Shown piece by piece: positions 18,501-54,769 of a stretch of DNA of 64,000 nt. The notes under the pieces are model-generated. The model made no database searches, was not told where the DNA came from, and saw nothing but the letters and a program-made list of their open reading frames with translations. Source of the stretch: an uncultured Clostridia bacterium (GTDB lineage: Bacteria; Bacillota; Clostridia; TANB77; CAG-508); NCBI GenBank assembly GCA_944391855.1, contig CALXVB010000003.1, forward strand, positions 1 through 64,000, in the 5' to 3' direction. The number at the start of each line of letters is the position of its first letter. Position 1 is the stretch's first letter. A program made the translations under genes and the position numbers.

Positions 18501-19994
18501 GCTTTGCCAGAAATTAGATTTCAAACAAAGAAAGATAACATAGAATTACCTAAAACAGCAACAGAAAAAAAATTGTCTAAAATATATGAAGAGCTTTTAA
18601 GTATTTCTCCAATAAGCATTAATGATAATTTCTTCGAAATTGGTGGAGATTCAATGCTTGCATTAAAGTTGCAAATTAAGTTATTAAATGATAATATATA
18701 TATCACCTATGCAGATATTTTTAAATATCCTACAATAAGACAATTAGCAAATAAGCTTGATACTAATATAGAAAATAATAGTATTTCTGTAGAAAATTAC
18801 GATTTTTCTAATATTCATTCACTTATAAAAGTTAATAGTATAGAAAATATCAAAAGTATATCAAAATTAGAAAAAAGAGAAACCGGAAATATTATTCTTA
18901 CTGGTGCTACTGGCTTTTTAGGTGCGCATATATTATCGCATATATTAGATAATACAAATCTAAAAGTTTATTGTTTATTACGACCTGATTTAAGTATAGA
19001 TATAAATACTAAATTATTAAAAAGATTACAATATTATTTTGGTAATAAATATGATAAATTAATGAATATAAGGATATTTGCAATATCTTCAGATATTACT
19101 AGTGAAGGACTTGGCTTAAACATTGATACACTTACCCTATTGAATAAAGAAGCTTCTTGTGTTATAAATAGTGCTGCTATTGTAAAACATTATGGAGATT
19201 ATTCAGATTTTGAAAAGATAAATGTAAATGGAGTAAAAAATTTAATAAATTTCTGTATTAATAATAATAAAGAATTAATACAAATTTCTACAACTAGTGT
19301 GTCTGGAAATACCTTGTTTGATTTAGCTATTGATAATAATAACTTTAAGGAAGATATTGAATTTAATGAAACTAATTTCTACATTGGACAATCTTTGGAA
19401 AATGTATATGTGCGTAGTAAGTTTGAAGCAGAAAAAATTATATTTGAAAATATGTTTCATAATAACCTAAGGGCATTAATATTAAGAATAGGAAATATAA
19501 CTAATAGAAGTACTGATGGTAAATTTCAGCCCAACGCTTCTGAAAATGCATTTTTAAATAGATTAAAAGCATTTTTAGAGTTAAAATGTGTTCCAAACTA
19601 TTTAAAAAACATATATATTGAATTTAGCCCAGTAGATAAAGTAGCAGAAGCTATATATAAAGCAATATGTTACTCAAATAAATTTAATGTTTTTCACATA
19701 TATAATCCAAACCATATATATATGGAAGATTTAGTTCAGTTATTACCTGAAAATAAATTGACTTTTGTAGAAGATGAAGTATTTGATAAGAAATTACATA
19801 ACTTTATGAAAAAGGTTAGCGATACTACTTCTGTTTCTTACTTAATAAATGATTTAAATAAAGACCAACATATAAATTATGATAATTATATAAAAATAAA
19901 AAATGACTTTACTACTTACTTTTTAAATAAATCTAACTTTAGATGGAATAAAATTGATAAAGATTATATTGAAAAACTATTAAAAAACTTTTAA
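12549..19994 (+). CDS. Two-module nonribosomal peptide synthetase, domain order C-A-T-C-A-T-R with a terminal thioester reductase
   Basis: 2481 aa. C1 has HHIISDSWS (nt ~12954). A1 has YTSGSTGKPKG (~14380) and PNGKIDKKAL (~15367). T1 has GGDSL (~15538). C2 has HHIICDGQS (~16085). A2 has YTSGSTGNPKG (~17497) and PNGKIDKKAL (~18478). T2 has GGDSM (~18640). R has GATGFLGAHIL (~18904) and YVRSK (~19405). Confidence 0.9.
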   Translation: MKNMLEKNVYGLTGPQKNIWNTELFFNNSNVNNVCASGILHEALDFDLLKQALNILVKENDSFRVRIQVKDNVPVQYFSDFVPFDVDILNANNKKDFAKIEQETVSKKFNILDSDLFLFKLVRFPDSTGGIILNVHHIISDSWSLGLVIQEIIKIYHALKANIDYVPDTFSYIEYINSEEKYKSSKRYLSDKEFWSDYLSSLPEPVTIPGLVTSTSSSRGNRLSYTIDKKTCNLINEYCRSNNISNYVFFMSIFALYIANISDSLDFIIGTPILNRTNFKEKNTIGMFVETVPFRFSLDISSSFKELSSKTSLNLMSLLRHQKYSYTDMLEDLRKQDNNIPNLYNIAISYQITKAFSSDIGDYETNWAFNNNSLNDMNIHIYDINDTGSLQINYDYLIDKYAEKDIEFLHLRILNIIKQVLNSSNNLKLSDIKVITDEEFGQLSKFNNYTLNYSTATVNELISEAADKYPNNIAVVDNNRRITYSQLENYSNIIANILIKNNIKSNEIVGIYMPEKNIDLICSALGILKTGSAFLGIYNEYPLDRIIYMLKDSNSKCLIVDDLNNPNVKAIKTAIPNILLIETNSLDFSKKLDFKINTKIDLDSNAYIIYTSGSTGKPKGVSLSHKNLINFVYSFREHLQGVDITDRFISVTNICFDVSMSEIFTPLFFGASLYLYKDLNYSTPKELAEYITKNEITFSYFPPALLSHVCNELKKLDGVKLCKMLVGVEPIKAATLSEFLKINPNMRIVNGYGPTETTICCTMYDFGNTLPADSIVPIGMPLYNNHLYVFNKFMNYLPINYPGILWVAGDNVGNGYIGQAKNTTDTYKVFNGTNFYNTGDLVKWDENGVLHFIGRKDNQIKFHGYRIDLGEIEAAIKKFENVSNCFVLSNKTNEVDRLVAFITSHSIINEFDIRTFISNILPHYMIPSEFIFLDTFPLTPNGKIDKKALLELANVKFNSSKDNVKPSSPLENTLANIFSSVLGISQISVNDNFFELGGDSLNAIKLIGKIEEELHMKILIKDIFSFPTVASMAKYIDQYSSKSEKRTITPTTKEEFYPLSFAQKRIYYTVKLNENSIVYNTPFGIIFDKMPDTLKLEACFNTIIDTNQALRTYFDIENGEVVQKVKDKIDFKLDVVETENKSINEIFDDFVQPFDLNTAPLFRAKFVKSGNIYILLVDMHHIICDGQSANILADKLCKLYNDTSIEKNDIDYIDFVVWERKNSQTEEFEKSKEFWVNNFKGELPVLNMPLQKTRPKVQSFRGNKIYDKIEDTAKLYELCKNLNVTPYMLLLSLYYVLLYKYTGQDEFVVGSPITGRDNIQTSNIIGMFVNTLPLKATVNKNTSFHNLLSQVMNNCIRAFENQLYPFDELVKELDIPRDSSTTPIFSTMFTFQNTGVPSLELNGLNVKYYIPDNKTAKFDFSLEISPIGNDLDLNLEYCIDLFDKEFMQDFLKHYINIYNYILNNDMEVLIKDIPILSKEEENSLIYEYNDTYIEYPRDKTIIQLFEKQVKETPNKTAIIFNNKSITYKELNKKANQIAYYLRENGIKPNNVVGIMVNRSFELIACMLGILKSGAAYLPIDPTYPQERINYIIKDSNVNILLTLDNLINNINIDSNAKVLPVNFDTSAIYNLPDDNLDTVNKPEDLAYLIYTSGSTGNPKGVMLTHRNVNNFIEATCKEIEFENIIVSVTTFCFDIFVLESLLPLQKGLTIVLANEEEQNIPQRLNELCNANNVQMLQTTPARMSLLLSDKDSLEYIKNLKVIMLGGEPFPQKLLEELKRLTEARIYNMYGPTETTVWSSIKELTNTSEITIGRPMGNTQFYILDNDNNLLSAGMEGHLFIGGDGVGNGYLHRVELTKEKFINNPYRENDIIYDTGDMAKWNNEKEAICLGRSDFQVKLHGLRIELSEIENRIVQFPNISKAVVCVKKDNLERDFLCAYFVSKSRISTPALKDFLSKFLPTYMVPNKFKQLSDFKYTPNGKIDKKALPEIRFQTKKDNIELPKTATEKKLSKIYEELLSISPISINDNFFEIGGDSMLALKLQIKLLNDNIYITYADIFKYPTIRQLANKLDTNIENNSISVENYDFSNIHSLIKVNSIENIKSISKLEKRETGNIILTGATGFLGAHILSHILDNTNLKVYCLLRPDLSIDINTKLLKRLQYYFGNKYDKLMNIRIFAISSDITSEGLGLNIDTLTLLNKEASCVINSAAIVKHYGDYSDFEKINVNGVKNLINFCINNNKELIQISTTSVSGNTLFDLAIDNNNFKEDIEFNETNFYIGQSLENVYVRSKFEAEKIIFENMFHNNLRALILRIGNITNRSTDGKFQPNASENAFLNRLKAFLELKCVPNYLKNIYIEFSPVDKVAEAIYKAICYSNKFNVFHIYNPNHIYMEDLVQLLPENKLTFVEDEVFDKKLHNFMKKVSDTTSVSYLINDLNKDQHINYDNYIKIKNDFTTYFLNKSNFRWNKIDKDYIEKLLKNF

Positions 19995-20019: not shown

Positions 20020-21822
20020 ATGACCACTTTTTTACTATTATATTTTTCGGTAATAATTATTCTTGTAATAATACTTTTAATCAACAGAACCAAAAATAAC
20101 AATCAGCTAGCAAAAATATATACATGTAGCTTAGTTTGTATATTAATATGGGTTACGGCATTACTGTGTCAAATGACTTTTGCTGAAAGGTATAACATTC
20201 CTCCTATATATTTTGATTATGTAGCATATATAGGTATATGTTTTCTGCCTATTAGTGTACTCTTTACTGGTATATGCTTTTCAAAAACGCATGTTACTTT
20301 TAAGAAAAAGCATCTATTGCTATTTATTGTACCAATCATAACTTTGCTATTACTTTGGACAAATGACTACCATCATTTATTATATGAGCACTATTCTATA
20401 TACTTAAACGACTGCGTTTCCGGTCCATATATGATAATGCATAATATATATTCATACGGTTTGCTCTTGATTGGTGTAATGTATTTATTAATATTTTCTT
20501 TTAGGAACTCAGGATTTTTCTCAAAACAATCAGTACTGATTTTTATTGGAATGCTTATTCCTTTAGTAGTTAATGTTTTGGGAACATTCAAAATTCTACC
20601 TATGACAATATATATAACACCTATGACATTTACTCTAACAATGATATTTACTGCACTTGCAATTTTTAAATTTAACTTTTTGTCCGCAACGCCTATTGCA
20701 CTTCAGCGTATTGTCGACACTATGTCTGATGGATATATAGTTCTAAATACTTATAATGTTGTAGTAGATTTTAACTTATCTTTGTTAAAAATGTTAAACA
20801 CAACTGAAGAGAAAGTTAGAAACAAGGATTTTATAGAGCTTCTTAATTTCACTGAATTTACTAAATCTGAAATTAAGAAAGTGGCTCACTATATAGCCTT
20901 ATCAAAAAGCAATAATAAAACTTATACTATGGATAAAGAAAGCAAAGTAACAGAAAAGTATTTTCATATAGAAATAAGTGGATTAATGTCTGAAAATACT
21001 AATATAGGAACTTTAATACTCCTTAAAGATACGACTCAGCACATGATAGATTTACATACCATACAAAATAGTCAAAATTTACTTATGGAAAGAGAGCGTT
21101 TAGCATCACTTGGACAATTAATCGGTGGTATTGCACATAACTTAAAAACACCTATAATGTCAATTTCAGGTGCAGCTGAAGGTTTAACAGATTTAATTCA
21201 TGAATATGATACTTCTATAGGTGACCCGGAAGTTACAAATGATGATCATCATGCCATTGCAAAAGATATGTCAGAATGGGTTAGTAAAATTAAATCATAT
21301 ACAGAATACATGTCAGACGTAATTACAGCTGTTAAAGGGCAGGCAGTTACTCTTTCTGAAAATGATTCTACTTCTTTTGATATTGACGAATTAGTTAAAA
21401 GAGTAAATATATTGATGAGGCATGAATTAAAAAATGCTTTAGTAACATTAAATACAGAGATGAATATAGACAAAAGTACAACTTTGCATGGTGATATAAC
21501 TAGTCTAGTTCAAGTTATTAACAATATGATTTCTAATAGTATTCAAGCATATAATGGAGAGCCTAATAAAGTAATTGATTTAATAATAAAAAAACATGCT
21601 TCAAATGTAGTTATTTCAGTAAGAGATTATGGAAATGGTCTTCCAGAAGAAGTAAAAGAAAAATTATTTAAAGAAATGATAACAACAAAAGGGAAAAATG
21701 GTACTGGTCTTGGATTATTTATGTCTTACTCTACAATAAGAGCACATTTTAATGGAGATATAACATTTGAAACTAAACAAGGTAAAGGTTCTACATTTAA
21801 TATAGTTATACCTATTAAATAA
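20020..21822 (+). CDS. Sensor histidine kinase with N-terminal 7TM domain
   Basis: 600 aa. Seven hydrophobic helices in the first ~220 aa. H-box LGQLIGGIAHNLKTP. HATPase G-box GTGLGLF. Starts 25 nt after the NRPS stop, with a ribosome-binding site GGAGGA. Confidence 0.8.
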   Translation: MTTFLLLYFSVIIILVIILLINRTKNNNQLAKIYTCSLVCILIWVTALLCQMTFAERYNIPPIYFDYVAYIGICFLPISVLFTGICFSKTHVTFKKKHLLLFIVPIITLLLLWTNDYHHLLYEHYSIYLNDCVSGPYMIMHNIYSYGLLLIGVMYLLIFSFRNSGFFSKQSVLIFIGMLIPLVVNVLGTFKILPMTIYITPMTFTLTMIFTALAIFKFNFLSATPIALQRIVDTMSDGYIVLNTYNVVVDFNLSLLKMLNTTEEKVRNKDFIELLNFTEFTKSEIKKVAHYIALSKSNNKTYTMDKESKVTEKYFHIEISGLMSENTNIGTLILLKDTTQHMIDLHTIQNSQNLLMERERLASLGQLIGGIAHNLKTPIMSISGAAEGLTDLIHEYDTSIGDPEVTNDDHHAIAKDMSEWVSKIKSYTEYMSDVITAVKGQAVTLSENDSTSFDIDELVKRVNILMRHELKNALVTLNTEMNIDKSTTLHGDITSLVQVINNMISNSIQAYNGEPNKVIDLIIKKHASNVVISVRDYGNGLPEEVKEKLFKEMITTKGKNGTGLGLFMSYSTIRAHFNGDITFETKQGKGSTFNIVIPIK

Positions 21823-21991: not shown

Positions 21992-23047
21992 ATGAGAAAA
22001 AATGAGAATATTGCAAAATCTAATGGATATAAGATTATAGCAGTTGATGATGAAGAAGGAATAGTAGATTCACTTTCTATATTCCTAAAAAGGTCAGGTT
22101 ATCAGTTTACAGGAGTTACCGATCCACTAGAGGCAATAGAAAAAGTAAAAAATGAACACTTTGATTTAATGATTTTGGACTTTATAATGGAACCTATACA
22201 TGGTGATAAGGTTGTAGAAGAAATTCGTAAATTTAATAAAGAATTATACATTTTATTACTTACTGGTCATAAAGATTTAGCCCCACCGCTTGAGACTATT
22301 AGAGAATTAGACATTCAAGGATATTGCGAAAAAAGTGATAAATTTGACCAACTTTTATTACTTATAGAGTCAGGAATTAAATCTATTGAACAAATGAATG
22401 AAATTAAGAGAATAAATGAAGAGCTTTCCGAAACTTATGAAAGATTGGAAAAGGCTTACTTAGATAGTATACAAACACTAAGGTATACAGTTGAAGCAAA
22501 GGATCCATATACAAGAGGTCATTCTGATAGAGTATCTGAGTATTCTGTTTTAATAGGCAAGAAGTTAGGTTTATCAGATGATGATTTAAAAACCTTACGT
22601 GTTGGCGGGTTATTCCATGATATTGGTAAGATTGGAATACCAGACAGTATACTTTTAAAAGAATCAAAATTAACAGATGATGAATATTCAGAAATAAAAA
22701 GTCATCCATCTATTGGTGCACATATTCTTTGTAATGCAGAAGTATTTAAAGATATCATACCAATAGTAAAGCATCACCACGAAAGATATGATGGAAGAGG
22801 ATATCCAGGGCAATTAAAAGGAGAAGATATTCCATATTTTGCAAGAATTGCTGCTGTGGCTGATAGCTTTGATGCGATGACCTCAAAAAGGACTTATAGA
22901 AATTCATTAGATATTTCTATAGTACGTTCTGAAATAGAAAAGAATCTAGGAACTCAATTTGACCCTAAATTAGGCAAAATTTTCATAGATATAATTGATA
23001 ATGAATATGATAAAATAAAGGAAATACAGGAAAAATATCCTTCATAA
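21992..23047 (+). CDS. Response regulator with REC plus HD-GYP domain (c-di-GMP phosphodiesterase type)
   Basis: 351 aa. REC domain (IIAVDDEEG...DLMILD). HD-GYP core HSDRV...GLFHDIGKIGIP...HHERYDGRGYPG. A hairpin-U7 terminator lies at 23053-23078. Confidence 0.85.
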   Translation: MRKNENIAKSNGYKIIAVDDEEGIVDSLSIFLKRSGYQFTGVTDPLEAIEKVKNEHFDLMILDFIMEPIHGDKVVEEIRKFNKELYILLLTGHKDLAPPLETIRELDIQGYCEKSDKFDQLLLLIESGIKSIEQMNEIKRINEELSETYERLEKAYLDSIQTLRYTVEAKDPYTRGHSDRVSEYSVLIGKKLGLSDDDLKTLRVGGLFHDIGKIGIPDSILLKESKLTDDEYSEIKSHPSIGAHILCNAEVFKDIIPIVKHHHERYDGRGYPGQLKGEDIPYFARIAAVADSFDAMTSKRTYRNSLDISIVRSEIEKNLGTQFDPKLGKIFIDIIDNEYDKIKEIQEKYPS

Positions 23048-38904: not shown

Positions 38905-39504
38905 TCTGTATTCTTCCTTTCTTTTAATATTTATTTTCTTATTTTATCCACTTCTAAAATAATATACATAAAATTTTATCACAAATTTTCAAAAAAGTAT
39001 AGACAAAATTTAAAAAATGTTGTATTATTGGTAGAAATTGGAAGGCGGTGTTTGAATTTACTATTCTAGATTTATTTTTCATATTTTTTATTATCCATCT
39101 TTTTATCAGTCTTTATTCAATTTATTTATTTTTCAATAATAAATTATTTCATAATTTACAAGGCGCAAAATTAAATTTAAAATCTAAACATTTTTCTAAT
39201 AAAAACTAAAAGAGGTGAATACTTTATTAGACGTTTACTATTTATTCTTATTTTTTCTTTTTTCTACTGCTATTTAGGCTATAAACTTTTTTCTGATATT
39301 ATTTATTCTAATTCAGTAATAATCCCCTATGGAATACACCCATTTGATATTTGTATTAAAAATCCTGATTTATGGAAATATATTAAAATTACTTTTGTTT
39401 TTACCTATATCTTTTCTTCCTTTATCATTTCTAATTCTTTTTATTTAATCCTGTCTTCTTTAAGTAAAAGAATAAAAGATAAAATTAGTAATTTTCCTGT
39501 AAAA

Positions 39505-41085
<1,581 letters not shown>

Positions 41086-41102: not shown

Positions 41103-41450
41103 ATGAAAAAATCTAAAAATAAATTTATTTTATTCTATTTTATGTTTCTATTATTCATATTTTTAATGTTATTCAATAATATATGTAAATCTGCTCTTTT
41201 TGATAGCCCTCCCGCGTTAGTAGATAAATTGACTAATGCATTTGAAAGCATTAAAAGTTGGCTTATTACTCTTGCTACTCCTGCTGCTGCAGTTGCTGTA
41301 GGTGTTGGAGTTTTTATGAAAAAGTTTAGTTTTGGCGATGAAGAAAGAATTAGAGTTGCCAAAAAGTTAATTAGAGGTTCTTTATTTTCTTATGCTTTTA
41401 TTCTTGCAATTAATTTAATTTTATCTGCAATTAAATCTTTAATAGAATAA
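41103..41450 (+). CDS. TrbC/VirB2-like pilin-type protein
   Basis: 115 aa. Signal-peptide-like N-terminus, then a hydrophobic helix (ITLATPAAAVAVGVGVF), a short charged loop, and a second helix. This is the VirB2 topology. Confidence 0.45.
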   Translation: MKKSKNKFILFYFMFLLFIFLMLFNNICKSALFDSPPALVDKLTNAFESIKSWLITLATPAAAVAVGVGVFMKKFSFGDEERIRVAKKLIRGSLFSYAFILAINLILSAIKSLIE

Positions 41451-41465
41451 TTATGGAGGTGTACT

Positions 41466-42362
41466 TTGGAAGAAAGTGTTTCAAGTGCTGAACTTACTAA
41501 TATTTCGCAAGTTATTATAGATACTATAAATAATTTATTAAATTCCCTATTTTCTTCTATTGATAATAGTGTTTATGATACTCTAGATGAATTAACTTTT
41601 ATAGGTACAGATATTTTAAATGATTCTTTATTTTCTAAAATATTTGGACATGGTTCAAATAACGGTTTACTAATAATTGCAAATTCTCTGCTTGTTGCAG
41701 TTTGTTTATACTATTGTTTTAAATTAATTTATTCACATTTTACGGGTATTTCTATTGAGAAACCATATCAGTTTGTTTTTAAATTATTAATATTTGCAAT
41801 GTTTATTAATTGTTCTTATTTTATATGTGAATTTTTTATATATTTTACTGATTTAATTTCTTCGTTAATTCGTCAAATTGGTGCTTCTATTTTAAATACA
41901 GAAATTTCTTTTTCTGCATTAGTAGAAAACTTAAATTCAGTTATTACAATTGATTCTACTAATATTAATGTGTTTTCTTTTGATGGAATTTTAAGAAGTA
42001 TTATATCTTTTAGTTTTGTAAGTTTATTATTTACCTATTCTTTAAGATATATAATGATAAAAGTTCTAATATTATTAATGCCTTTTGCTTTTCTCACACT
42101 AATAAACGCTTCAAGCGCATGGTTTTTCAAGGCTTGGCTTAAAATCTTTTTATCTCTTCTTTTTATTCAGCCATTTATTTCACTTATTCTTTTAATATCT
42201 TCTTCCTTAGATTTTTCTTCTTCTGATATTATCTCTAAATTACTATGTATTGGTTCATTATATGCTCTGATAAGAGCTAATTCATATACTCAACATTTTA
42301 TAGGTGGAATTTCCACAGATGTTTCACAAAGTTTTAAATTAATGAAAGGACAAGTTAAATAA
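41466..42362 (+). CDS. Polytopic membrane protein, VirB6/TrbL-like
   Basis: 298 aa with 5-6 TM helices. TTG start with a ribosome-binding site GGAGGTG. Lies in the operon between the pilin-like and PrgI-like genes. Confidence 0.4.
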   Translation: MEESVSSAELTNISQVIIDTINNLLNSLFSSIDNSVYDTLDELTFIGTDILNDSLFSKIFGHGSNNGLLIIANSLLVAVCLYYCFKLIYSHFTGISIEKPYQFVFKLLIFAMFINCSYFICEFFIYFTDLISSLIRQIGASILNTEISFSALVENLNSVITIDSTNINVFSFDGILRSIISFSFVSLLFTYSLRYIMIKVLILLMPFAFLTLINASSAWFFKAWLKIFLSLLFIQPFISLILLISSSLDFSSSDIISKLLCIGSLYALIRANSYTQHFIGGISTDVSQSFKLMKGQVK

Positions 42363-42364
42363 TT

Positions 42365-42649
42365 ATGAAATTTATTTTTCCACAAAATTATAATTTTGAT
42401 AGTAAATTACTCGGTTTTATTGACTATACTACTGTTATTTTAAATATTTTATGGGGATTATTTATATTTTTAATATCTTATTTTATTATTCCAAATATTA
42501 CTTTTAAAATAAGTTTTTTCATTGTTTTCTTTTTTCCTTTTTTCTTGTTTAGTATTATCGGATTTAATCATGAAAAAATGTTATATATTATTAAATATTT
42601 ATTTAAATACATTTTTTCTCCTAAAATATATTTATATAAAAAATATTAA
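42365..42649 (+). CDS. PrgI/VirB3-like small membrane protein
   Basis: 94 aa with two TM helices. The N-terminal FPQNYNFDSKLLGF and C-terminal KYLFKYIFSPKIYLY resemble the PrgI family. Translationally coupled to the upstream gene. Confidence 0.45.
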   Translation: MKFIFPQNYNFDSKLLGFIDYTTVILNILWGLFIFLISYFIIPNITFKISFFIVFFFPFFLFSIIGFNHEKMLYIIKYLFKYIFSPKIYLYKKY

Positions 42650-45085: not shown

Positions 45086-47524
45086 CTATTCTTGTTCTTT
45101 TTCTTCCATAGAAATTGTTTCTATACTAACTACTTTTCCTTCATTTGTCCTCATTAAGGTTACACCTTGAGTAGAACGTCCTAATACACTTATGTCTGAA
45201 ACTTTAAGTCTAATTATTGTGCCTGTATCAGTAATTAGCATTACGTCTTCATCATCTGTAGCAATTCTTATTCCAACTAAATTTCCTGTTTTAGATGTTA
45301 CTTTATATGTTATTACACCTTTTCCTCCTCTTGTTTGAACTCTATATTCATCAAGTTCTGTTCTTTTTCCGAATCCATTTTCTGTTATTGCAAGAAGAGT
45401 TGCCTTACTTCCTTGTATTATTGATTCCATTCCTATAACATAGTCTCCGTCGTCTAATCTAATGCCAATAACTCCTTGAGATACTCTTCCCATAGGTCTT
45501 ACATCTTTTTCGTCAAATGTTATACACATTCCTTTATGTGTTACAAGTACTACATTGTCTTCTCCATCAGTGAGTCTTACGTCTATAAGTTCATCTTCAT
45601 CTTTTAAGGTTATTCCTATTAATCCAGTCTTTCTTACAGACATATATTCATTAAGAGAAGTCTTTTTAATTATTCCGTTTTTTGTAGCCATTAACAAATA
45701 TTTTCCTTCTGCAAAGGTTGCAATAGGTATAACTGCAGAAATCTTCTCTCCACCGTCTAACATTAAAAGGTTTACTATTGCAGTACCTTTAGCAGTTCTT
45801 CCTGCTTCTGGTATTTCATATCCTCTTAATCTATATACTTTACCTTTATTACTAAAGAATAATATTGTATCATGTGTAGAACATGTAAATATTTCTTTTA
45901 CGAAATCTTCTTCTCTAGTAGCAATTCCTGTTATTCCTTTTCCTCCTCTTTTTTGGCTTTTATATGTGTCTATTGGCATTCTCTTTACATAGCCAAAGTG
46001 AGTTAGTGCAACAACGCATTGTTCCTCTTTTATTAAATCTTCTACGTCGAATTCTCCTTCTGCTGCAACTATTTTTGTTTTTCTTTCATCTCCATATTTG
46101 TCTTTTATTTCTAATAATTCTTCTTTTATAATGTCATATACAAGCTTATCACTTGCAAGTATTGCTCTTAAATGCTCAATTAATTTCATTAATTCTGCAT
46201 ATTCTTCTTCTATTTTTTCACGTTGCAAACCTGATAATGTTTTTAATCTCATATCTAGGATAGCTTGTGCTTGTATATCAGAAAGTCCAAATCTTTCCAT
46301 TAATCTTTCTTTTGCATCGTCATAAGAATTTCTAATTATTTCAATTACTTCATCTATGTTATCTAATGCAATTTTTAATCCTTCTAATATATGAGCTCTT
46401 GCTAATGCTTTATCTAAATCAAATTGTGTTCTACGAAGAATTACTGTTTTTCTATGGTCTATATAATATTCTAAACATTGTCTCAATGTTAGTATTTTTG
46501 GTTCTCCATTAACTAATGCTAACATTATAACTCCAAAAGTATCTTGCATTTGTGTATATTTGAATAATTGATTTAATATTACTTGAGCATTTACATCTCT
46601 TTTTAGCTCTACAACTATTCTTACTTTTTCTTCTCTATCTGATTCATCTCTTACTTCTGAAATTCCTTCTATTCTTTTTTCTTTTACTAAGTTTGCAATA
46701 TTTTCAATTAATTTTGCTTTATTTACTTGATATGGCAAAGATCTAACAATTATTCTTTGTTTGTTTCCACTCATTTCTTCTATTTCCGCCTCTGCTCTCA
46801 TTGTTATTTTACCTTTACCTGTTGTATATGCTTCTTTTATTCCATCTCTTCCTAAAATTAAACCTTCTGTAGGAAAATCTGGTCCTTTTATAATGCTCAT
46901 TAATTGTTCATCTGTAACATTGTCATCATCAATTATCTTAACTATTCCATTTATAACCTCTGTTAAGTTATGTGGTGGAATGTTTGTTGCCATACCTACG
47001 GCAATTCCTGAAGAACCATTTATTAAAAGTGTAGGTATTTTAGCTGGTAAAACAGTTGGCTCTTGTAATCTATCATCATAGTTTGGCATAAAATCAACTG
47101 TATTTTTCTCTATATCTGTAAGCATTGTTTCTGCTATTTTTGACATTCTTGCTTCTGTATACCTCATAGCTGCTGGTGCATCACCATCAACAGAACCAAA
47201 GTTTCCATGTCCATCAATTAGTGGATATCTCATAGAGAAGTCTTGTGCCATTCTTACCATTGCATCATAAACCGATGCATCCCCATGTGGATGGTATCTT
47301 CCTAAAACTGAACCTACTGTATTAGCACTTTTTCTGTAAGGTTTATCAGAAGTTATTCCATCTTCATACATGGCATATAGGATTCTTCTATGTACTGGTT
47401 TTAAACCATCTCTTACATCTGGAAGTGCACGAGAAACAATAACGCTCATAGCATAATCGATATATGATGTTTTCATTTCTGTTTCAATATTTCTTTCGAT
47501 AATTTTTCCTTCATTTTCTTCCAT
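45086..47524 (-). CDS. gyrA: DNA gyrase subunit A
   Basis: 812 aa. The catalytic-Tyr region and a GyrA-box QKRGGKG in the C-terminal domain distinguish it from ParC. Confidence 0.95.
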
Positions 47525-47589
47525 TTTATTTTTTCCGTCCTTTCCAAAATGTTCAATAACTACTCTTGTATTATACTATAAATACAGCA

Positions 47590-47630
47590 AAATTTGCAAG
47601 TGAAAAAGGCTAATTCTTTTTGAAAAAATA
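47590..47630 (-). terminator. Terminator for the 47716-48435 gene: AAAAGGCTA...TAGCCTTTT hairpin plus U-run on the minus strand
   Basis: Stem 47594-47602/47619-47627. Confidence 0.55.
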
Positions 47631-47715
47631 GCCTTTTTTGATAAAAAATTCTTAATATTTTTTTATTATTTTTTATTTTAAATTTTTAATATTTTTTATT
47701 TAATAAATTCTATAT

Positions 47716-48435
47716 TTATGTTAATAAATTAGCTAACTCTCTTTGTTCATCTGTTAAATTAAAATCATGATTATTATTTTTAATTAAACTATGTAGATTT
47801 TCTATAATGCGAGCTTCTTTTATTGTATTTTCTAAAGGCATTAATTCTTCTAATTTTTCTTGTATTTTTTCATATTCTCTCTCCATACCATCAAAATCTT
47901 TATTTTCAAAATATTCTTTCCAATTGCTTTCATATTTTGCTAGTTTTTCTACTCCATCTATTTGCTCTGTAAATTCATTTTCTATCCTATCACTTACACT
48001 ATTTAATATTGCATCTTTACCACTACTAATTATGTTTGCAATATTACCACTTATTAGTCCTGAAGAACTTGTCTTGTCTAATACTTTATCTAATACATTT
48101 GAAATTCCATCTATTATTCCTCCATTTTTTACAGCATCTCTCGCTTGAGAAATACTATCAAAGTCTCCTGTAAATATTCCAATAACGCTTTTTCCTAAAT
48201 TAATTGCACTATTTATTGCTGTGTCTATTCCTTCTTTAAATCCACCTTGAAAAAAAGCATCTTTTATTTCTACTATCCCCTCTTCTATAAAATCAGGTAA
48301 AACCATTCTAAGTCCTATATCTAAAGCAGAATTAACAGCTTTTCCTATATTAGATTGTAAAAAATTATTTTGTTCTTGTGCAAGATTCTCTTCATTTAAA
48401 TTATTATTTAAATCAACATTATTTTCTAATTCCAT
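47716..48435 (-). CDS. Hypothetical protein, first gene of the gyrB-gyrA insertion
   Basis: 239 aa, Gly/Ser/Ile-rich. No motif recognised. Confidence 0.3.
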   Translation of the reverse strand: MELENNVDLNNNLNEENLAQEQNNFLQSNIGKAVNSALDIGLRMVLPDFIEEGIVEIKDAFFQGGFKEGIDTAINSAINLGKSVIGIFTGDFDSISQARDAVKNGGIIDGISNVLDKVLDKTSSSGLISGNIANIISSGKDAILNSVSDRIENEFTEQIDGVEKLAKYESNWKEYFENKDFDGMEREYEKIQEKLEELMPLENTIKEARIIENLHSLIKNNNHDFNLTDEQRELANLLT

Positions 48436-48459
48436 AATTTTTCTCCTTATTTTTTATTT

Positions 48460-49782
48460 TTAAATATTATTTAATTTATTATTAATATCTATATATTCTT
48501 TCTTTAATTTTTCATCTAATAAATTATATTTATTATTTTTATTGATTAATTTATTATATATTTTTCTATAATTTAATTTTCCTATTACATTAAATTCACT
48601 AAATATATTTTTTAATAAATTAAAATTAATTGATTCAGAATTATATTTATTAAATATTATTTTTATTTTATTAATTTTAATATTTAATTTATTTATATAT
48701 ATATCTAATAATTTTATTGATTTATTTATTTCCAATAAATTGGTATCTGAAATAAATAGACAAAAATCACATATCTCTATTATATTTTTTATATAATTTG
48801 TTTTTTTATTATAATTAGTATCAATTATTATAAGCTCATACATTTCTTTTAAAAAATTTATATTTTCAATTATTTTATTTAAAAATATATTTTCATTATT
48901 TTCTTCTATCTTTTCTCTTATTTTTTCTTTTTTTAAAATTAATAAATCTATTTTTTTATTAATTTTAATTATATTAAAATATTCAAAAATATTATTAAAA
49001 TTATTTTTTGAATATTTATTATTTATTTCATAATTTATTTTTTCTATATAAGTATTTGCATTTTTTGATATGTTTTTAAGACCTAAAATTGTGTTAATAG
49101 AATTATTAAAAAAATCTGAACCAATAATTAAAATCTTATTATTTTTATAAGCATTAATTTTAGCTAAATTTATAGATATAATTGTTTTTCCAACTCCTGG
49201 AGGTCCTGTTATAGAAAATGTTTTATTTTTTATTTTATTTTGAAATGATTTTTTTGAATTTAATTTAATTTTTTTTGAATTTAATATTTTAATTAAATGA
49301 TTATCTATTATATTTTTTGCTGTTTTTTTTATTAATAATATTTTTTTATTTTTATTTTTTTCGTTTTTTTCTTGTTTAATTTTATTAACTATATTTTTAT
49401 TTTCATAATTATTATCTATATTATTATCTATTATTTCTATTATTTTTTGTGTATTAATTTTGTCATTTTTATCTAAATAAATAATTTTATATATATTTTT
49501 ATAATTTAAATATTTTTCTATTTCTTTTTCATTATTTTCTATAATAATTATTATTTTAATACTTTTATTAATTATATAAATTTGTTTTATTAAATCTTCT
49601 ATTTTTATTTCACCTTGTAATATATTATTTATTATTATATAATCAACTTCATTTTTTTCTTCTAGAATTTCAATTATTCCTTCTTTATATTGAATATCAT
49701 TTAAAATAATATTTATATTCTTTTCTTTTTTTAATTCATTATTTATAGATTCATTTCCAATGGCAGTTATTATTTTTTTCAT
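48460..49782 (-). CDS. Receiver-like N-domain plus P-loop NTPase of the ParA/MinD/FlhF (SIMIBI) type; hyper-AT gene
   Basis: 440 aa. Walker A FSITGPPGVGKTIISINLA. Downstream ILIIGSDF and IIIDTNY (DTxG-like) follow with ParA/FlhF-like spacing. The N-terminal ~120 aa resemble a REC fold. GC of many 60-nt stretches is below 10%. Confidence 0.4.
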   Translation of the reverse strand: MKKIITAIGNESINNELKKEKNINIILNDIQYKEGIIEILEEKNEVDYIIINNILQGEIKIEDLIKQIYIINKSIKIIIIIENNEKEIEKYLNYKNIYKIIYLDKNDKINTQKIIEIIDNNIDNNYENKNIVNKIKQEKNEKNKNKKILLIKKTAKNIIDNHLIKILNSKKIKLNSKKSFQNKIKNKTFSITGPPGVGKTIISINLAKINAYKNNKILIIGSDFFNNSINTILGLKNISKNANTYIEKINYEINNKYSKNNFNNIFEYFNIIKINKKIDLLILKKEKIREKIEENNENIFLNKIIENINFLKEMYELIIIDTNYNKKTNYIKNIIEICDFCLFISDTNLLEINKSIKLLDIYINKLNIKINKIKIIFNKYNSESINFNLLKNIFSEFNVIGKLNYRKIYNKLINKNNKYNLLDEKLKKEYIDINNKLNNI

Positions 49783-49800
49783 ATTTATTCCTTTTTAGTT

Positions 49801-51654
49801 TTAATTAAATTTAATTTTGTTTTCTATAATTTCTTTTTCAAAATCTGCTGCATATATTTTATTTAATATATGCTCATCTCCTATGAATGTTAAGCACTCT
49901 CCTCTTTTCAAAGATTTTATTTCTATTTTTTCTTTTTCAGATAAATTAGTAAACTTTTCTAATATTTTTATATTTTCTTCTTCTAAAGAAAAAAATGTTT
50001 TTATACTAGAATTATTTAAAATACTTTTTCCATATACTCCATCTTCTAAGCTGAAAATATCTGATATGTCCTGAGTAACCGCAACTCCACTCCCTCCATA
50101 CTTTCTAATAGTTTTAAATATTTTATATATAAAACTGGCAACGTCTTTATTAGAAGTAACACCTATTAGTCTCCATATTTCATCTAAATATATTGCTTTT
50201 TTTATTTTTCTATCTTTTTTTATTTTATCCCAAAATAATTCAGTAAATAAATACATTCCATATTTTAAATTTTCTTCTCCTAATTCATATACGTCTGCTA
50301 CAATTAATTTATTATTTAATTCTACATTTGTATAATTATTAAAAAAGTTTAAAGAACCTTTTATAAATGGAATTAATTTTGTTTTAAATATTTTTGTTTT
50401 TTCGTCTTTATCTAATATATTATAAAAGTCTTGTAAAATTGGCATGTCTTTACTTTCTTTAAACATTATATTGTTTATTTCATTTTCCAAATCATTTTCT
50501 TTATATTTATATAAACTTTTATCATCAAAAGTAATACCTTTTGTAGAATATAATTCTATTAATTTTTCTTCTAAAATTGCTTTTTCCTCTTCATTTATTT
50601 TTCCAAATATAAGATTAAAAAAACCTATTAATTTACTAATTTTATTTGCTAAATATCCTTGTTCATCATCTTCAATACTTTCTTTTCTTATATCAAACAC
50701 ATTTATGTATGTATCTGAGCCTGGTCCTATTTTTAAAAGAGTTCCATTTAAATTTTCACACAAATTATTGTATTCTCTTTCAGGATCTATTATGTATTGC
50801 TCTATTCCTAGTATTCTATATCTCAAAATTAATAATTTTGTATAAAAAGATTTCCCAGCACCAGAAGTTCCAAAAATGCACATATTCGCATTTTTATATT
50901 TTTGTGTATTGTATCTATCCACAAATATCAAAGAATTATTATATATATTTATTCCAATAAATATTCCTGTATCATCAAAAATGGCAGAAGATATAAATGG
51001 GTATGTACATACAAGACCACTAGTTAATACATTTCGCTTTGAAACTTCTTTTAGTAATTTATTATTTTCCATTAAAGGTAAACATGCTCTATATGCTTGT
51101 TCTTGCCTAAAATACGCTCTTCTTGTATGCAATCCTTTACTTTCTATTATTCCTTCTATTTTATTTAAAATATTTTCTATTTCATTTAAATCTTGAGAAT
51201 ATATACATACATAAATATATAAATAATATAAATCTTCGTTATTTATTTGTAATTCTTTTCTAATGTATTTTGCATCATTATATGTAAAAGCTGCTATATC
51301 TATGTCTTGCCTATTCTGATTATTTCCTTTCAAATCCGCACCAACATTACCTATATGATATGTAAGTTCTCTTATTGCTTTATAACTATCTTGTTTTTCA
51401 TAAAAAATTGAAATATTTATATCTATATTTGTATCTATTAATGTTTTTAAAAGTAATTCATTTTGTTCTCTAAAATAATTTACTATTAATATTGATGAAA
51501 AATAATTATTATCTATTTCAATATATTTTGGATTAGATAAATCAATACATGATGGTGCTAAAAAATCATTATCTGAAAATGTCCCTTCTAAAAAATTTAA
51601 TTTTTCTTTTTTATTTTTTTCTATTTTTCTTTTCAATTTAAAAATATTTTTCAT
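49801..51654 (-). CDS. VirB4-like conjugative/T4SS ATPase (PrgJ/TrsE/TcpF type)
   Basis: 617 aa. Walker A CIFGTSGAGKSF. Walker B YLDEIWRL. A TQ motif AVTQDISD. The N-terminal PSCIDLSNPKYIEIDNNYFSSILIVNYF...DINISIFYEKQD matches the Gram-positive VirB4 N-domain pattern. Confidence 0.6.
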   Translation of the reverse strand: MKNIFKLKRKIEKNKKEKLNFLEGTFSDNDFLAPSCIDLSNPKYIEIDNNYFSSILIVNYFREQNELLLKTLIDTNIDINISIFYEKQDSYKAIRELTYHIGNVGADLKGNNQNRQDIDIAAFTYNDAKYIRKELQINNEDLYYLYIYVCIYSQDLNEIENILNKIEGIIESKGLHTRRAYFRQEQAYRACLPLMENNKLLKEVSKRNVLTSGLVCTYPFISSAIFDDTGIFIGINIYNNSLIFVDRYNTQKYKNANMCIFGTSGAGKSFYTKLLILRYRILGIEQYIIDPEREYNNLCENLNGTLLKIGPGSDTYINVFDIRKESIEDDEQGYLANKISKLIGFFNLIFGKINEEEKAILEEKLIELYSTKGITFDDKSLYKYKENDLENEINNIMFKESKDMPILQDFYNILDKDEKTKIFKTKLIPFIKGSLNFFNNYTNVELNNKLIVADVYELGEENLKYGMYLFTELFWDKIKKDRKIKKAIYLDEIWRLIGVTSNKDVASFIYKIFKTIRKYGGSGVAVTQDISDIFSLEDGVYGKSILNNSSIKTFFSLEEENIKILEKFTNLSEKEKIEIKSLKRGECLTFIGDEHILNKIYAADFEKEIIENKIKFN

Positions 51655-51796
51655 TTTATTTTTCCTCTCTAAAGTTAAAGAATTATTTTTTATTTGTTTT
51701 TATAATTAATTTAAATAATTATTTTATTTTTGATTTTTATCCTTAATTTTTATTTGTTTTTATTGTTGATTTTCTCGTTTAAGTAATAATTAATTA

Positions 51797-52399
51797 TTAT
51801 TTATTATTAGTATAAATTCTTGTATTAAAAAAAGAAAATAATATATGTTTTATTTGTTTTTTATCATTTATATCTGTAGCAATATTTCCGCATCTTGATA
51901 ATCCATCTTTAATTTTAAAATATTTATTATTTAAATTTTCTGTTGCATTAGTTTGAATATCTATAATTTCATTGTTTTTATTAATATATTCTAAAATTAT
52001 ATAATAATTTTTTGATGACGATTTTTTATTATTATTTAATTCTTTTATTTTTTCTATATATTTTTTTGATATTTCTTGGATGTTTTTTTCTTCTTGAATT
52101 AAATGATTATTTATTTGAGAAAAATGATTAGATAAATCTACTTTATTACTTTGTATTAATATTTGAAAATTAAAATCACATGTTTTTAAAAAAATTTTAT
52201 ATGAATTTAAAATAGCTTCTTTTTCTAAATCTGATTTTAAATTAAAATTAATCGGATTTATTTTAATTATTTTTAAATATCTATTATCCTTTGTTTTAAT
52301 TATTCCATTTTCTAATATTTCTTCTATTTTTAACCATTCCTGGCTAGAATTAATATTGTTTTTTTTATTTATTTTAATTATATATTCCTCCTTTCTCAA
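51797..52399 (-). CDS. Hypothetical protein (hyper-AT) upstream of the VirB4-like gene
   Basis: 200 aa, Asn/Lys/Ile-rich. No TM helix and no recognised motif. Confidence 0.3.
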   Translation of the reverse strand: MRKEEYIIKINKKNNINSSQEWLKIEEILENGIIKTKDNRYLKIIKINPINFNLKSDLEKEAILNSYKIFLKTCDFNFQILIQSNKVDLSNHFSQINNHLIQEEKNIQEISKKYIEKIKELNNNKKSSSKNYYIILEYINKNNEIIDIQTNATENLNNKYFKIKDGLSRCGNIATDINDKKQIKHILFSFFNTRIYTNNK

Positions 52400-52749
52400 T
52401 TAATTAATAAAAATAAATAATTAAATATATATTTATATATTATATTTCTATTAAAATTAATTTTTTTATTAATATTTTATTTATATTTAATTAAATAAAT
52501 TATTTTTTGAATATTTAAAGATTAAAATTATTTTGATATTAATTTTTGAAAAAATTATTAAATAATATAATATAAGATAATATGATTAAAATCAATTAAT
52601 TTTTATTTTCTTTTTTATACCATATTTCTATCAACTTTTCAAGAAAAATCGTAATCCTTTTTTCGACATTTTTTGCACAGTATTTTGTTAATTTTTTATT
52701 AATATTCTATTATTATTAATTTATTTTAATTTTTGAAAAAATATATAAA

Positions 52750-52800
52750 AAATAGGTAAATAATTAATATTTAATTTATTAATTATTTTACCTATTATTT
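52750..52800 (-). terminator. gyrB terminator: imperfect AT-rich hairpin plus U-run on the minus strand
   Basis: ATAGGTAAATAATTAAT at 52752-52768 pairs with ATTAATTATTTTACCTAT at 52778-52795. T-runs follow on the minus strand. Confidence 0.45.
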
Positions 52801-52819
52801 TTACAAATTATTATATGTC

Positions 52820-54769
<1,950 letters not shown>

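Follow-up and report, generated by a model that had tools for sequence, protein, structure and literature searches.

A putative conjugation-derived type IV secretion system, inherited with the chromosome and encoded around gyrA in uncultured gut Clostridia

The genes gyrB and gyrA are neighbours in many Firmicutes. In an uncultured Clostridia bacterium (assembly GCA_944391855.1), of which the first 64,000 nucleotides (nt) of contig CALXVB010000003.1, hereafter the window, were analyzed, gyrB (52820-54733, minus strand) and gyrA (45086-47524, minus strand) are separated by 5295 nt filled by four intact minus-strand open reading frames (ORFs). In gene order from gyrB, these encode products of 200, 617, 440 and 239 amino acids, here designated N200, V617, P440 and X239. 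A reading made from the sequence alone had drawn attention to this extremely AT-rich block of long ORFs, and their sizes and places as well as a scan of GC content bear it out, at a level that exceeds chance by far. The same reading regarded the block as inserted DNA. This raises the question whether foreign DNA came between the two gyrase genes or whether the block belongs to the chromosome, and which function its products may have.

Based on comparisons with relatives, the block is probably one half of a vertically inherited MPF_FATA-like type IV secretion system (T4SS) without a nearby relaxase, which would have been captured from a conjugative element, fixed beside the replication origin and co-opted. 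As far as sequence comparison reaches, the identity of the system and its vertical inheritance are near-certain. The origin (oriC) is located near 60 kb by the switch in GC skew and by gene order, with rpmH-rnpA-yidC-jag on one side and dnaA-dnaN-recF-remB-gyrB on the other side, on the minus strand.

The VirB4 genes and the second half beyond gyrA

For comparison, a scan with V617 using one genome per species returned 314 relatives, of which the best 80 (67-95% identity) served as loci; single relatives are cited by their L numbers. V617 belongs to the VirB4 family, as had been proposed from the letters alone. It matches Pfam P-loop_TraG (PF19044; 5.7e-22, 78.4 bits, cut-off 25.8) and AAA_10 (PF12846; 4.1e-13, 49.5 bits, cut-off 27.5) as well as the NCBIfam equivalog model NF045971 for VirB4-like conjugal transfer ATPases of the CD1110 family (1.4e-84, 284.8 bits). 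The equivalog cut-off of 325 bits is reached neither by V617 nor by N200 (30.9 bits). All motifs quoted earlier are present, namely the Walker A motif GTSGAGKS at residues 262-269, YLDEIW from residue 489 with Walker B DEIW at 491-494, and TQ at 527-528, along with GPPGVGKT at residue 193 of P440. In ten V617 orthologues with 83-93% identity, G262-S269 and D491-R495 are invariant. A reading of V617 as part of a defence system was rejected, with PADLOC showing just generic ATPase similarity (mad8, DndH).

The alignment of V617 to NF045971 begins only at model position ~183. The N-terminal domain of VirB4, which interacts with the membrane and with VirB3, is not on V617 and is carried by the separate 200-amino-acid ORF, an assignment that goes beyond the sequence-only reading. 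N200 covers positions 2-161 of NF045971 (8.7e-8) and positions 87-260 of the NCBIfam Mycoplasma-type VirB4 model (6.4e-8), and in blastp it aligns with the first ~200 residues of ~80 full-length VirB4 proteins (best 1.7e-26). In hhalign, the profile of its orthologues aligns with residues 124-288 of a 942-amino-acid VirB3-VirB4 fusion of Vescimonas (E = 7.5e-15, probability 98%). The division into N200 and V617 was seen in all 80 loci, each part having its own Shine-Dalgarno sequence, and N200 is present at every locus with sufficient upstream DNA. Judged by these alignments, N200 and V617 are one VirB4 encoded as two polypeptides.

N200 probably starts not with the listed TTG but with ATA (52381) or ATT (52378), located 3' of GGAGG at 52391-52387. 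The gene of the type IV coupling protein (T4CP; o526, described below) shows the same pattern: in both (window positions 52376-52391, minus strand, and 39212-39228, plus strand), GGAGG or GAGGTG, a strong Shine-Dalgarno match, precedes ATA or ATT by 5-8 nt, and none of the codons ATG, GTG and TTG is within reach. In ~65 species, the codon best spaced from the N200 Shine-Dalgarno sequence is ATA in 28, ATT in 10 and ATG in 23 cases, and the T4CP start codon is ATT or ATA in 7/7 loci reaching that start, counts to be read with the AT-richness of the DNA in mind, which inflates matches to ATA and ATT.

A second V617-like copy (72% identity) was noticed in L074 (835-3384), where it is fused in frame to the N-terminus of a REC-LytTR response regulator to give 849 amino acids. 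It lies on a 4.9-kb contig of a UMGS1663 metagenome-assembled genome (MAG) with flanks that look compositionally different (GlnS-like fragment), and represents an assembly chimera or else a genuine fusion or paralogue.

The block was furthermore recognized as half of a larger system, which had escaped the sequence-only reading. Past gyrA, on the opposite strand at 39.2-42.6 kb, lie four T4SS-type genes (o526, o115, o298 and o94; Table 1), followed by DnaD-domain and DnaC-like (PRK06835) genes. The product of o526 provides the T4CP expected of an MPF_FATA conjugative element: it matches Pfam TrwB_AAD_bind (26.5 bits, cut-off 20.5) and TraG-D_C (1.1e-3) as well as SXT_TraD (4.2e-8), has a Walker A motif GTIGTGKT at residue 90, and shares 43% identity (2.5e-110) with the T4CP of L093, an element that bears a relaxase. 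Its frame is open for 108 codons further upstream, from 39181, where two N-terminal transmembrane (TM) helices are encoded, with ATT at 39226, preceded by GAGGTG, as the likely start.

The smaller genes are assigned by more distant similarities. The putative pilin o115 matches PF18895 (T4SS_pilin) at 1.9e-4, below the cut-off, and by tblastn the PF18895-annotated gene of L093 at 6.3e-10; hhalign against a Vescimonas 'fimbrial protein' gave E = 1.2e-3 with a probability of 19%. For the VirB6-like candidate o298, three of 30 orthologues match Pfam TrbL/VirB6 weakly (best 0.016), and tblastn linked o298 to a 316-amino-acid protein encoded after the hydrolase gene in L093 (3e-6) and to the gene that opens the T4SS cluster of L095 (2e-17); its profile matched neither TrsL of pSK41 nor a 309-amino-acid Vescimonas protein. 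The orthologue profile of o94 aligns with residues 10-97 of the Vescimonas 'PrgI family' VirB3-VirB4 fusion (hhalign E = 5.4e-5, probability 67%), and tblastn gave 9e-10 and 3e-12 to small genes just upstream of VirB4 in L093 and L095, respectively. The single Vescimonas polypeptide thus corresponds to o94, N200 and V617 together. A single cluster of L093 contains homologues of all six genes o94, N200, V617, o115, o526 and o298 in similar order. In L067 and L081, the two halves adjoin each other on the same strand without an intervening gyr gene, which argues that they are one system. By similarity, the gene set appears homologous to the inner-membrane core of a monoderm T4SS, with a VirB3-like protein, a split VirB4, a VirB6-like protein and a T4CP, plus a VirB2-like pilin.

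Table 1. Positions of the features discussed, with strand and basis of assignment.
Feature	Position	Strand	Basis or description
o526, type IV coupling protein (VirD4/T4CP)	39181..41085	+	listed ORF 39505-41085 (ATG 39505)
o115, VirB2-like T4SS pilin candidate	41103..41450	+	signal/TM segment and hydrophobic hairpin
o298, polytopic membrane protein, VirB6/TrbL-like candidate	41466..42362	+	at least 5 TM-like segments
o94, two-TM VirB3/PrgI-like protein	42365..42649	+	TM segments, hhalign, tblastn
Spacer X239-gyrA	47525..47715	-	hairpin (AAAGGCTA...TAGCCTTT) and T run, then promoter-like site; pattern matches only
X239, soluble all-helical orphan	47716..48435	-	no TM segment, no signal peptide
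P440, TadZ/CpaE-like protein	48460..49782	-	Pfam, AF2, Foldseek, PDB profiles
V617, VirB4 middle and C-terminal ATPase part	49801..51654	-	Pfam, NCBIfam, motifs, orthologues
N200, stand-alone VirB4 N-terminal domain, TrsD-like architecture	51797..52399	-	NCBIfam, blastp, hhalign
Spacer gyrB-N200	52400..52819	-	8.8% GC; AT-rich hairpin and T run right after gyrB stop

Conservation, composition and ancestry

The best 80 of the 314 V617 relatives are all gut MAGs labelled "uncultured Clostridia/Clostridium", from human, chicken, rabbit and ruminant. They include one closed chromosome of 1.57 Mb, and genomes of the clade comprise about 1.6-1.9 Mb. The relatives L061 and L074 belong to UMGS1663, a genus placed in the uncultured order TANB77 (PMC11680825), and the clade is therefore called TANB77-type here. 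In 48/48 loci holding both gyr genes, VirB4 lies between gyrB and gyrA on one strand, and o526, o115, o298 and o94 are likewise kept at the same place. Across the clade, the block occupies a chromosomal site near the replication origin without a relaxase nearby and with dnaA-dnaN-recF-gyrB immediately upstream.

Ratios of nonsynonymous to synonymous substitution rates (dN/dS) were calculated against close relatives and amount to 0.05-0.09 for V617, as low as for recF, 0.09-0.34 for N200, 0.12-0.26 for X239 and 0.36-0.52 for P440. For o526, values of 0.05-0.16 were obtained. With L008, L009, L012, L016 and L011, the five nearest relatives compared, the four genes beyond gyrA together gave 0.05-0.25; for N200, V617, X239, o526, o115, o298 and o94 as a whole, the range is 0.05-0.26 against these five and reaches up to 0.34-0.43 at greater distance. 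The synonymous rate (dS) of the block equals that of flanking housekeeping genes, and identities of V617, N200, X239 and o298 track those of gyrA, gyrB, recF and DnaD (Spearman 0.56-0.92). On these sequence comparisons, purifying selection acts on all genes of the system, and their divergence keeps pace with that of the chromosome. The earlier suggestion of selection on function rather than decay thereby holds.

The composition of the region is extreme even for this genome. Its GC content is 17.3% compared to 26.8% in the remainder of the window (window mean 26%), and all of the sliding windows of 500 nt below 15% GC (23/636) fall inside it. Per 60-nt block, the median number of G+C is 10 (minimum 1) in the gap vs 19.5 in gyrA. 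Isoleucine, asparagine and lysine are the commonest residues of the block proteins, and I/N/K/Y/F make up 57-67% of the 200- and 440-amino-acid products. The relatives show the same profile: in ~70 species, GC is ~0.15 in N200, ~0.21 in V617, ~0.12 in the P440 region and ~0.25 in X239, as against ~0.31 in gyrA and gyrB. The sequence-only reading had named relatives carrying the same block at comparable GC beforehand as an observation speaking against an insertion. Such relatives were found in number, with the order conserved in 48/48 loci and extending to L091 at 68% gyrA identity, so the insertion of foreign DNA is unsupported.

The G+C content at third codon positions (GC3) is low throughout the window, with a host range of 0.091 to 0.22; V617 (0.099) and X239 (0.087) are at or just under this minimum, and P440 (0.036) and N200 (0.070) are clearly lower. 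Most of the GC deficit of the block resides at codon positions 1 and 2, with I/N/K/Y/F accounting for 45-67% of residues, from which it follows that the low GC reflects amino-acid drift under AT pressure. The AT-richness is a by-product of strong AT mutation pressure on loosely constrained protein segments and not a mark of foreign origin. The features of a genomic island, that is absence in close relatives and deviating synonymous sites, were not found, and neither were the hallmarks of mobility, that is integrase, flanking repeats and patchy distribution, at this position fixed in 48/48 loci. Repeats flanking the block are only AT-rich low-complexity matches, none of them att-like, and a tRNA scan found none in the block.

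Pfam matches to relaxase or MobC are absent from the window ORFs scanned (64 kb) and from the gene tables of relatives within +/-10 kb; an integrase was found neither in the window ORFs scanned nor within +/-10 kb in relatives. A peptidoglycan hydrolase (VirB1/CHAP/M23) is missing from the window ORFs scanned, among them the genes adjoining the system, and within +/-10 kb in relatives, whereas L093 has a Peptidase_M23.

Beyond the clade, the similarity of V617 declines gradually. Against 1.8 billion cluster representatives, identity falls from 71% (clade) to 44-53% in relatives and then to 30-38% in generic VirB4 proteins of integrative and conjugative elements (ICEs) and plasmids; against plasmids of PLSDB it is at most 35%. 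The genomic context was examined for four intermediate VirB4 relatives, L091, L093, L094 and L095. In L091 (GC 0.24; gyrA 68% and dnaA 51% identical to the window), a single strand carries dnaA-dnaN-recF-gyrB-(two genes)-N200-V617-...-X239-like-gyrA-...-T4CP-o115-o298-o94-DnaD. This layout indicates that the gyr-linked arrangement is old and that the window clade differs by an inversion of the T4CP-to-dnaC segment. In L094, genes for a T4CP, an N200 remnant, V617, a P440-like protein, a T2SSE ATPase and a T2SSF-like protein all lie upstream of gyrA.

The T4SS cluster of L095 comprises VirB6-like, VirB3-like, N200-like, V617-like and P440-like genes, the last with Response_reg (2.4e-4) plus AAA_31, and continues into RcpC-like, CpaE-like, T2SSE and small pilin-sized genes; here, a Tad-type pilus cluster directly adjoins the T4SS genes. 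L093 (GC 0.35) is a bona fide mobile element with MobC and a 1121-amino-acid relaxase (PF03432). Its T4SS genes are ordered o94-like, unsplit VirB4 of 849 amino acids, PF18895 pilin, T4CP, Peptidase_M23 hydrolase and o298-like, and it also encodes ParA and a 430-amino-acid REC+CbiA protein adjoining RcpC. In a rough neighbour-joining tree without support values, the gyr-linked VirB4 proteins (window clade, L091, L094) form one clade; L095 branches outside it, and the mobile L093 further out. As separate observations, VirB4 genes lead straight into a Tad-type module in L095 (1-12946), L094 (10001-16119) and L093 (20481-22550), and in L093 (3059-8791) a RelA_SpoT-domain protein and an HD_4 protein adjoin the 1121-amino-acid relaxase-DUF3991-primase fusion, an unusual cargo of a conjugative element.

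Taken together, these gene orders suggest an ancestral element that combined T4SS and Tad genes, and the TANB77-specific Tad cluster described in PMC11680825 may be its other half. In the simplest history, a conjugative element resembling L093 or L095 would have been captured once, long ago, near gyrA, after which relaxase, MobC and hydrolase would have been lost and the N-terminal domain of VirB4 separated.

P440, X239 and further features of the window

P440 consists of an atypical receiver-like domain (residues 1-120), a low-complexity linker (~124-183) and a MinD/ParA-type ATPase domain (185-440) with Walker A GPPGVGKT at residue 193 and Walker B IIIDT; G193, G198, K199 and D321 are invariant. 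It matches Pfam CbiA (1.5e-8, 35.1 bits, cut-off 25.4), and profile matches in the PDB are MinD, Soj and BY-kinases. An AlphaFold2 (AF2) model has a predicted confidence (pLDDT) of ~85-90 in both domains and shows a (beta-alpha)5 N-domain. With this model, Foldseek retrieved MinD/ParA proteins and, over the full length (E = 7.9e-9, 437 columns), the two-domain protein 3fkq of E. rectale, which we take to be the published TadZ structure; TM-scores were just 0.35-0.43. As modelled, P440 has the TadZ/CpaE architecture of an atypical receiver and a MinD/ParA-like ATPase. The receiver-like domain and ParA-type P-loop proposed from the sequence alone were thus recovered, and the FlhF-like spacing was not: an FlhF/SRP reading reached only E = 0.02-0.09 (NCBIfam TIGR03499 E = 0.086), and MinD/ParA/TadZ is preferred.

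No T2SSE (TadA-like) gene, as expected at a TadZ/CpaE locus, is present in the neighbourhood of P440 in the window; adjoining T2SSE (TadA-like) ATPases are found 3' of P440 orthologues only in L094 and L095, and RcpC adjoins the orthologue in L093. P440 is the most AT-rich (11% GC) and fastest-evolving gene of the block, its product consisting to 58% of I+N+K. It is absent in a subclade of eight species (L043, L064, L066, L076, L082, L084, L085 and L087). There, the gap between V617 and X239 is at most 152 nt, X239 starting 3-152 nt from the V617 stop, and ~850-1060 nt with regulators of the helix-turn-helix (HTH) type lie between X239 and gyrA.

X239 is a lineage-restricted orphan. It is present at every locus with sufficient downstream DNA, and a homologue with 34% identity occurs in the distant L091. 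Homologues number 2722, and the best 120 of these have 231-259 amino acids (nearly all 239) and no Pfam domain. An AF2 model based on 30 homologues is all-helical and poor (pLDDT 44). Comparison of the X239 profile with DUF5697, DUF6100 and a hypothetical protein of the Vescimonas T4SS cluster revealed no similarity, and a PHROGs tape-measure match with E = 0.007 is not credible.

The spacer between gyrB and N200 presumably contains the promoter region of the block. It varies between 206 and 6816 nt across relatives. A scan of the block including this spacer revealed no Rfam family. In L021 (5505-8861), L022 (2187-9004) and L038, the spacer has grown to 3-7 kb with unrelated cargo, among it peptidase M14-like, Nudix-like, abortive-infection-like and membrane proteins; small insertions seem to favour the gyrB-N200 junction as a local hotspot, while the T4SS block itself is fixed. 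It had also been claimed that gyrB ends in its own terminator and that gyrA has its own promoter. AT-rich hairpins with T runs are indeed readable 3' of gyrB and of the 239-amino-acid ORF, and a promoter-like TTGCAA-18-TATAAT at 47599-47570 precedes gyrA as a pattern match. A terminator scan requiring three G-C pairs did not call the two hairpins, and promoter-like sites are not enriched over shuffled sequences (81 found, 86.9 expected).

Elsewhere in the window, a gene at 12549-19994 (plus strand) encodes a two-module nonribosomal peptide synthetase of 2481 amino acids (C-A-T-C-A-T-R) with a terminal reductase domain, which presumably resembles the dipeptide-aldehyde/pyrazinone type of gut Clostridia. 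It is flanked by genes for a stand-alone AMP-binding enzyme (10696-12402, minus strand), a histidine kinase with seven TM segments (20020-21822, plus strand) and a REC-HD response regulator (21992-23047, plus strand). At 2808-4260 (plus strand), overlapping ORFs of 211 (Schlafen AlbA_2) and 290 amino acids (HATPase_c_4) give the impression of a single gene broken by a frameshift; their neighbours are a phage replisome-organiser-like gene (496-1299) and an HTH regulator (1996-2745).

Proposed role, rival explanations and related systems

We propose that the system was captured in an ancestor of the TANB77-type clade of uncultured low-GC gut Clostridia. The products of o298 and o94 would form a membrane translocon, with N200 and V617 docking on o94 as the VirB4 assembly or translocation motor, the T4CP o526 selecting and feeding the substrate, and o115 providing a short pilus or a conduit through the wall. 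P440 could act as a TadZ- or VirC1-like nucleotide-dependent hub for positioning or recruitment; VirC1 of Agrobacterium is a ParA-like ATPase that recruits substrate to the T4SS. It may also couple the machine to the Tad-type pilus known in TANB77, P440 linking T4SS genes and a Tad-type module in relatives. X239 would be a soluble accessory factor or a substrate. Since no relaxase, integrase or wall hydrolase is found alongside, the machine was most likely co-opted for a non-conjugative task, and since a T4CP is retained, export is favoured over ComB/Ced-like import. The task would probably be a contact-dependent translocation that exchanges protein or DNA with neighbouring cells, similar to proposals made for Patescibacteria. 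Judging from the conserved genes, a functional machine is very probable, while the arguments for and against this specific non-conjugative role appear evenly balanced.

A recent, compositionally foreign island or ICE fragment between gyrB and gyrA would account for the lowest GC of the window, the conjugative ancestry of the genes, the general adjacency of the gyrase genes in many Firmicutes and the variable cargo accepted by the gyrB-N200 spacer in L021 and L022. It retains hardly any credit, however, given a block with the same order and GC profile in all 48 informative relatives and at 68% gyrA identity, dS values like the flanks, identities tracking housekeeping genes, GC3 near host values for V617 and X239, and the lack of integrase, tRNA target and flanking repeat. 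Very improbable, too, is a dead fossil of an ancient ICE, kept only because DNA between two essential genes is difficult to delete. In favour of a fossil, the locus lacks relaxase, hydrolase and VirB8, VirB4 is in pieces, the composition of P440 is degenerating (with loss in some species) and start codons look non-canonical. Yet the ORFs are all intact in ~80 species, dN/dS against the five closest relatives is 0.05-0.26 with V617 constrained like recF, the Walker motifs are invariant, the split of N200 and V617 is conserved with a Shine-Dalgarno sequence for each, and the system persists apart from the gyr genes in L067.

Two further explanations grant a working machine and differ in its task. 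The T4SS could still be conjugative, serving a relaxase and an origin of transfer (oriT) that are located elsewhere or very divergent, and moving chromosomal DNA or other elements in an Hfr-like or 'helper' manner. The retained and strongly conserved T4CP fits this well, T4CPs being typical of substrate-exporting or conjugative systems and often encoded away from virB4 (PMC12102498), as do the site beside replication genes and a nearest outgroup that is a relaxase-bearing element. With no relaxase within 64 kb here or +/-10 kb in relatives, no wall hydrolase and strictly vertical inheritance, we regard continued conjugation as unlikely. Alternatively, P440 and the VirB4/VirB2-like genes could primarily build or position a surface filament for adhesion together with a Tad-type pilus, rather than a channel, as would suit the TadZ architecture of P440, the RcpC-like, CpaE-like, T2SSE and T2SSF-like genes after its orthologue in L093, L094 and L095, the VirB2-like pilin and the order-specific Tad cluster of TANB77 (PMC11680825). 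This is rather improbable as well: TadA, TadB and TadC are not adjacent in the window, the TANB77 Tad cluster has its own TadZ-like and CpaE-like genes (PMC11680825), P440 is dispensable in eight species that retain the T4SS genes, and the T4CP argues for substrate transfer.

Several points weigh against a captured and co-opted secretion system as well. A relaxase could reside elsewhere in the genome, outside the 64-kb window and the +/-10 kb of relatives, and VirB8-like and VirB1-like components were not found. The scores behind the VirB6-like and pilin assignments (o298 and o115) are weak, and profiles of N200, o298, o115 and o94 gave nothing significant against TrsD, TrsL, TrsB and TrsC of pSK41, so that we do not claim membership in the pGO1/pSK41 subclass. 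The non-canonical starts of N200 and T4CP could mean weak translation or an N-terminally truncated T4CP without TM helices. The dN/dS of P440 (~0.4-0.5) and its loss in eight species imply that the core does not depend on it; for X239, neither a fold nor a family can be named, searches of Pfam, NCBIfam and PADLOC having returned none. Finally, the VirB4 tree is rough, and the label TANB77 depends on one genus name in common with PMC11680825.

The closest described analogue is the T4SS of Patescibacteria (candidate phyla radiation, CPR) near dnaA, which is MPF_FATA-derived, chromosomal, clade-wide and without relaxase, and often located by dnaA/dnaN (Quinonero-Coronel et al. 2025, PMC12102498). 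Its parts are VirB4, a stand-alone homologue of the VirB4 N-terminus (TrsD), VirB3/PrgI, VirB6 and VirB2-like pilins of PF18895 (PMC12102498). The likeness concerns the monoderm MPF_FATA origin, the clade-wide, relaxase-less and origin-near chromosomal location, the split VirB4 N-terminus and the small-genome uncultured hosts. In contrast, the present system belongs to Clostridia, lies between gyrB and gyrA and by dnaD/dnaC, has the T4CP adjacent (usually distant in CPR) and one pilin gene (arrays in CPR), and adds a TadZ-like ATPase and the orphan X239. The host being a member of the Clostridia, the resemblance appears to be one of organisation, and membership of the window VirB4 in the monophyletic Patescibacteria clade is unlikely. 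Clostridia are not mentioned in PMC12102498.

Among mobile elements, the CD1110/CTn2-type MPF_FATA elements (L093; the Vescimonas fastidiosa pMM35_02 cluster, L090) come nearest, the best model of V617 being the CD1110 VirB4 and o94, N200 and V617 being collinear with the single 942-amino-acid Vescimonas VirB3-VirB4 protein. They differ from the window, where relaxase, MobC, wall hydrolase and integrase are not nearby, VirB4 is encoded as separate polypeptides, inheritance is vertical at a fixed site, the score remains below the equivalog level and identity to plasmid VirB4 proteins is at most 35%. TrsD/TrsE of pGO1/pSK41 share the architecture of a gene for ~200-230 amino acids followed by one for ~620-670 (PMC12102498), but the N200 profile has no detectable match to TrsD of pSK41 (hhalign E = 0.37). 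Because N200 aligns to CD1110-type VirB4 N-termini and not to TrsD, the split is probably independent and the analogy architectural only. With TadZ/CpaE of Tad (Flp) pili, P440 has in common the receiver and MinD/ParA ATPase, the full-length Foldseek match to 3fkq and orthologues that precede Tad-type genes in L093, L094 and L095; it deviates in a Walker A motif GPPGVGKT without the signature lysine of deviant Walker motifs, in its long low-complexity linker, in the lack of an adjoining TadA in the window and in being dispensable in a subclade.

Searches of the literature on VirB4 between gyrB and gyrA, on TANB77 and type IV secretion and on domesticated Firmicutes T4SS found no account of the locus; the TANB77 paper describes a Tad pilus cluster and no T4SS (PMC11680825). 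If our interpretation is correct, an order-level clade of abundant uncultured human and animal gut Clostridia would keep a conjugation-derived machine by oriC as a core trait, and it would represent a second, independent case of a relaxase-less, repurposed monoderm T4SS, outside Patescibacteria. There, the T4SS is essential for epibiotic growth in Ca. Southlakia, as Quinonero-Coronel et al. relate from their reference 37 (PMC12102498). In published work, TANB77 has been linked to immunotherapy response through its order-specific Tad pilus. A further-reaching idea, which we consider doubtful, is that this T4SS, a counterpart of the one on which epibiotic growth of Patescibacteria depends, and the Tad pilus are the two halves of one captured conjugative element, still joined in L095 and L093, and that as a core origin-proximal trait of TANB77 they jointly mediate an obligate contact-dependent interaction with bacteria or the host; if true, this would help to explain the resistance of TANB77 to cultivation.

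For the study of this clade, gyrB-virB4-gyrA offers a marker locus. VirB3, VirB4-N and VirB4-C as separate polypeptides would provide a natural case useful for dissecting VirB4 assembly, and the block illustrates that, where a genome is very AT-rich, an extreme local dip of GC can point to native genes under weak constraint and not to foreign DNA. Above all, the system would give a handle on the lifestyle of TANB77, which may involve contact-dependent exchange and possibly a dependence on partner cells.

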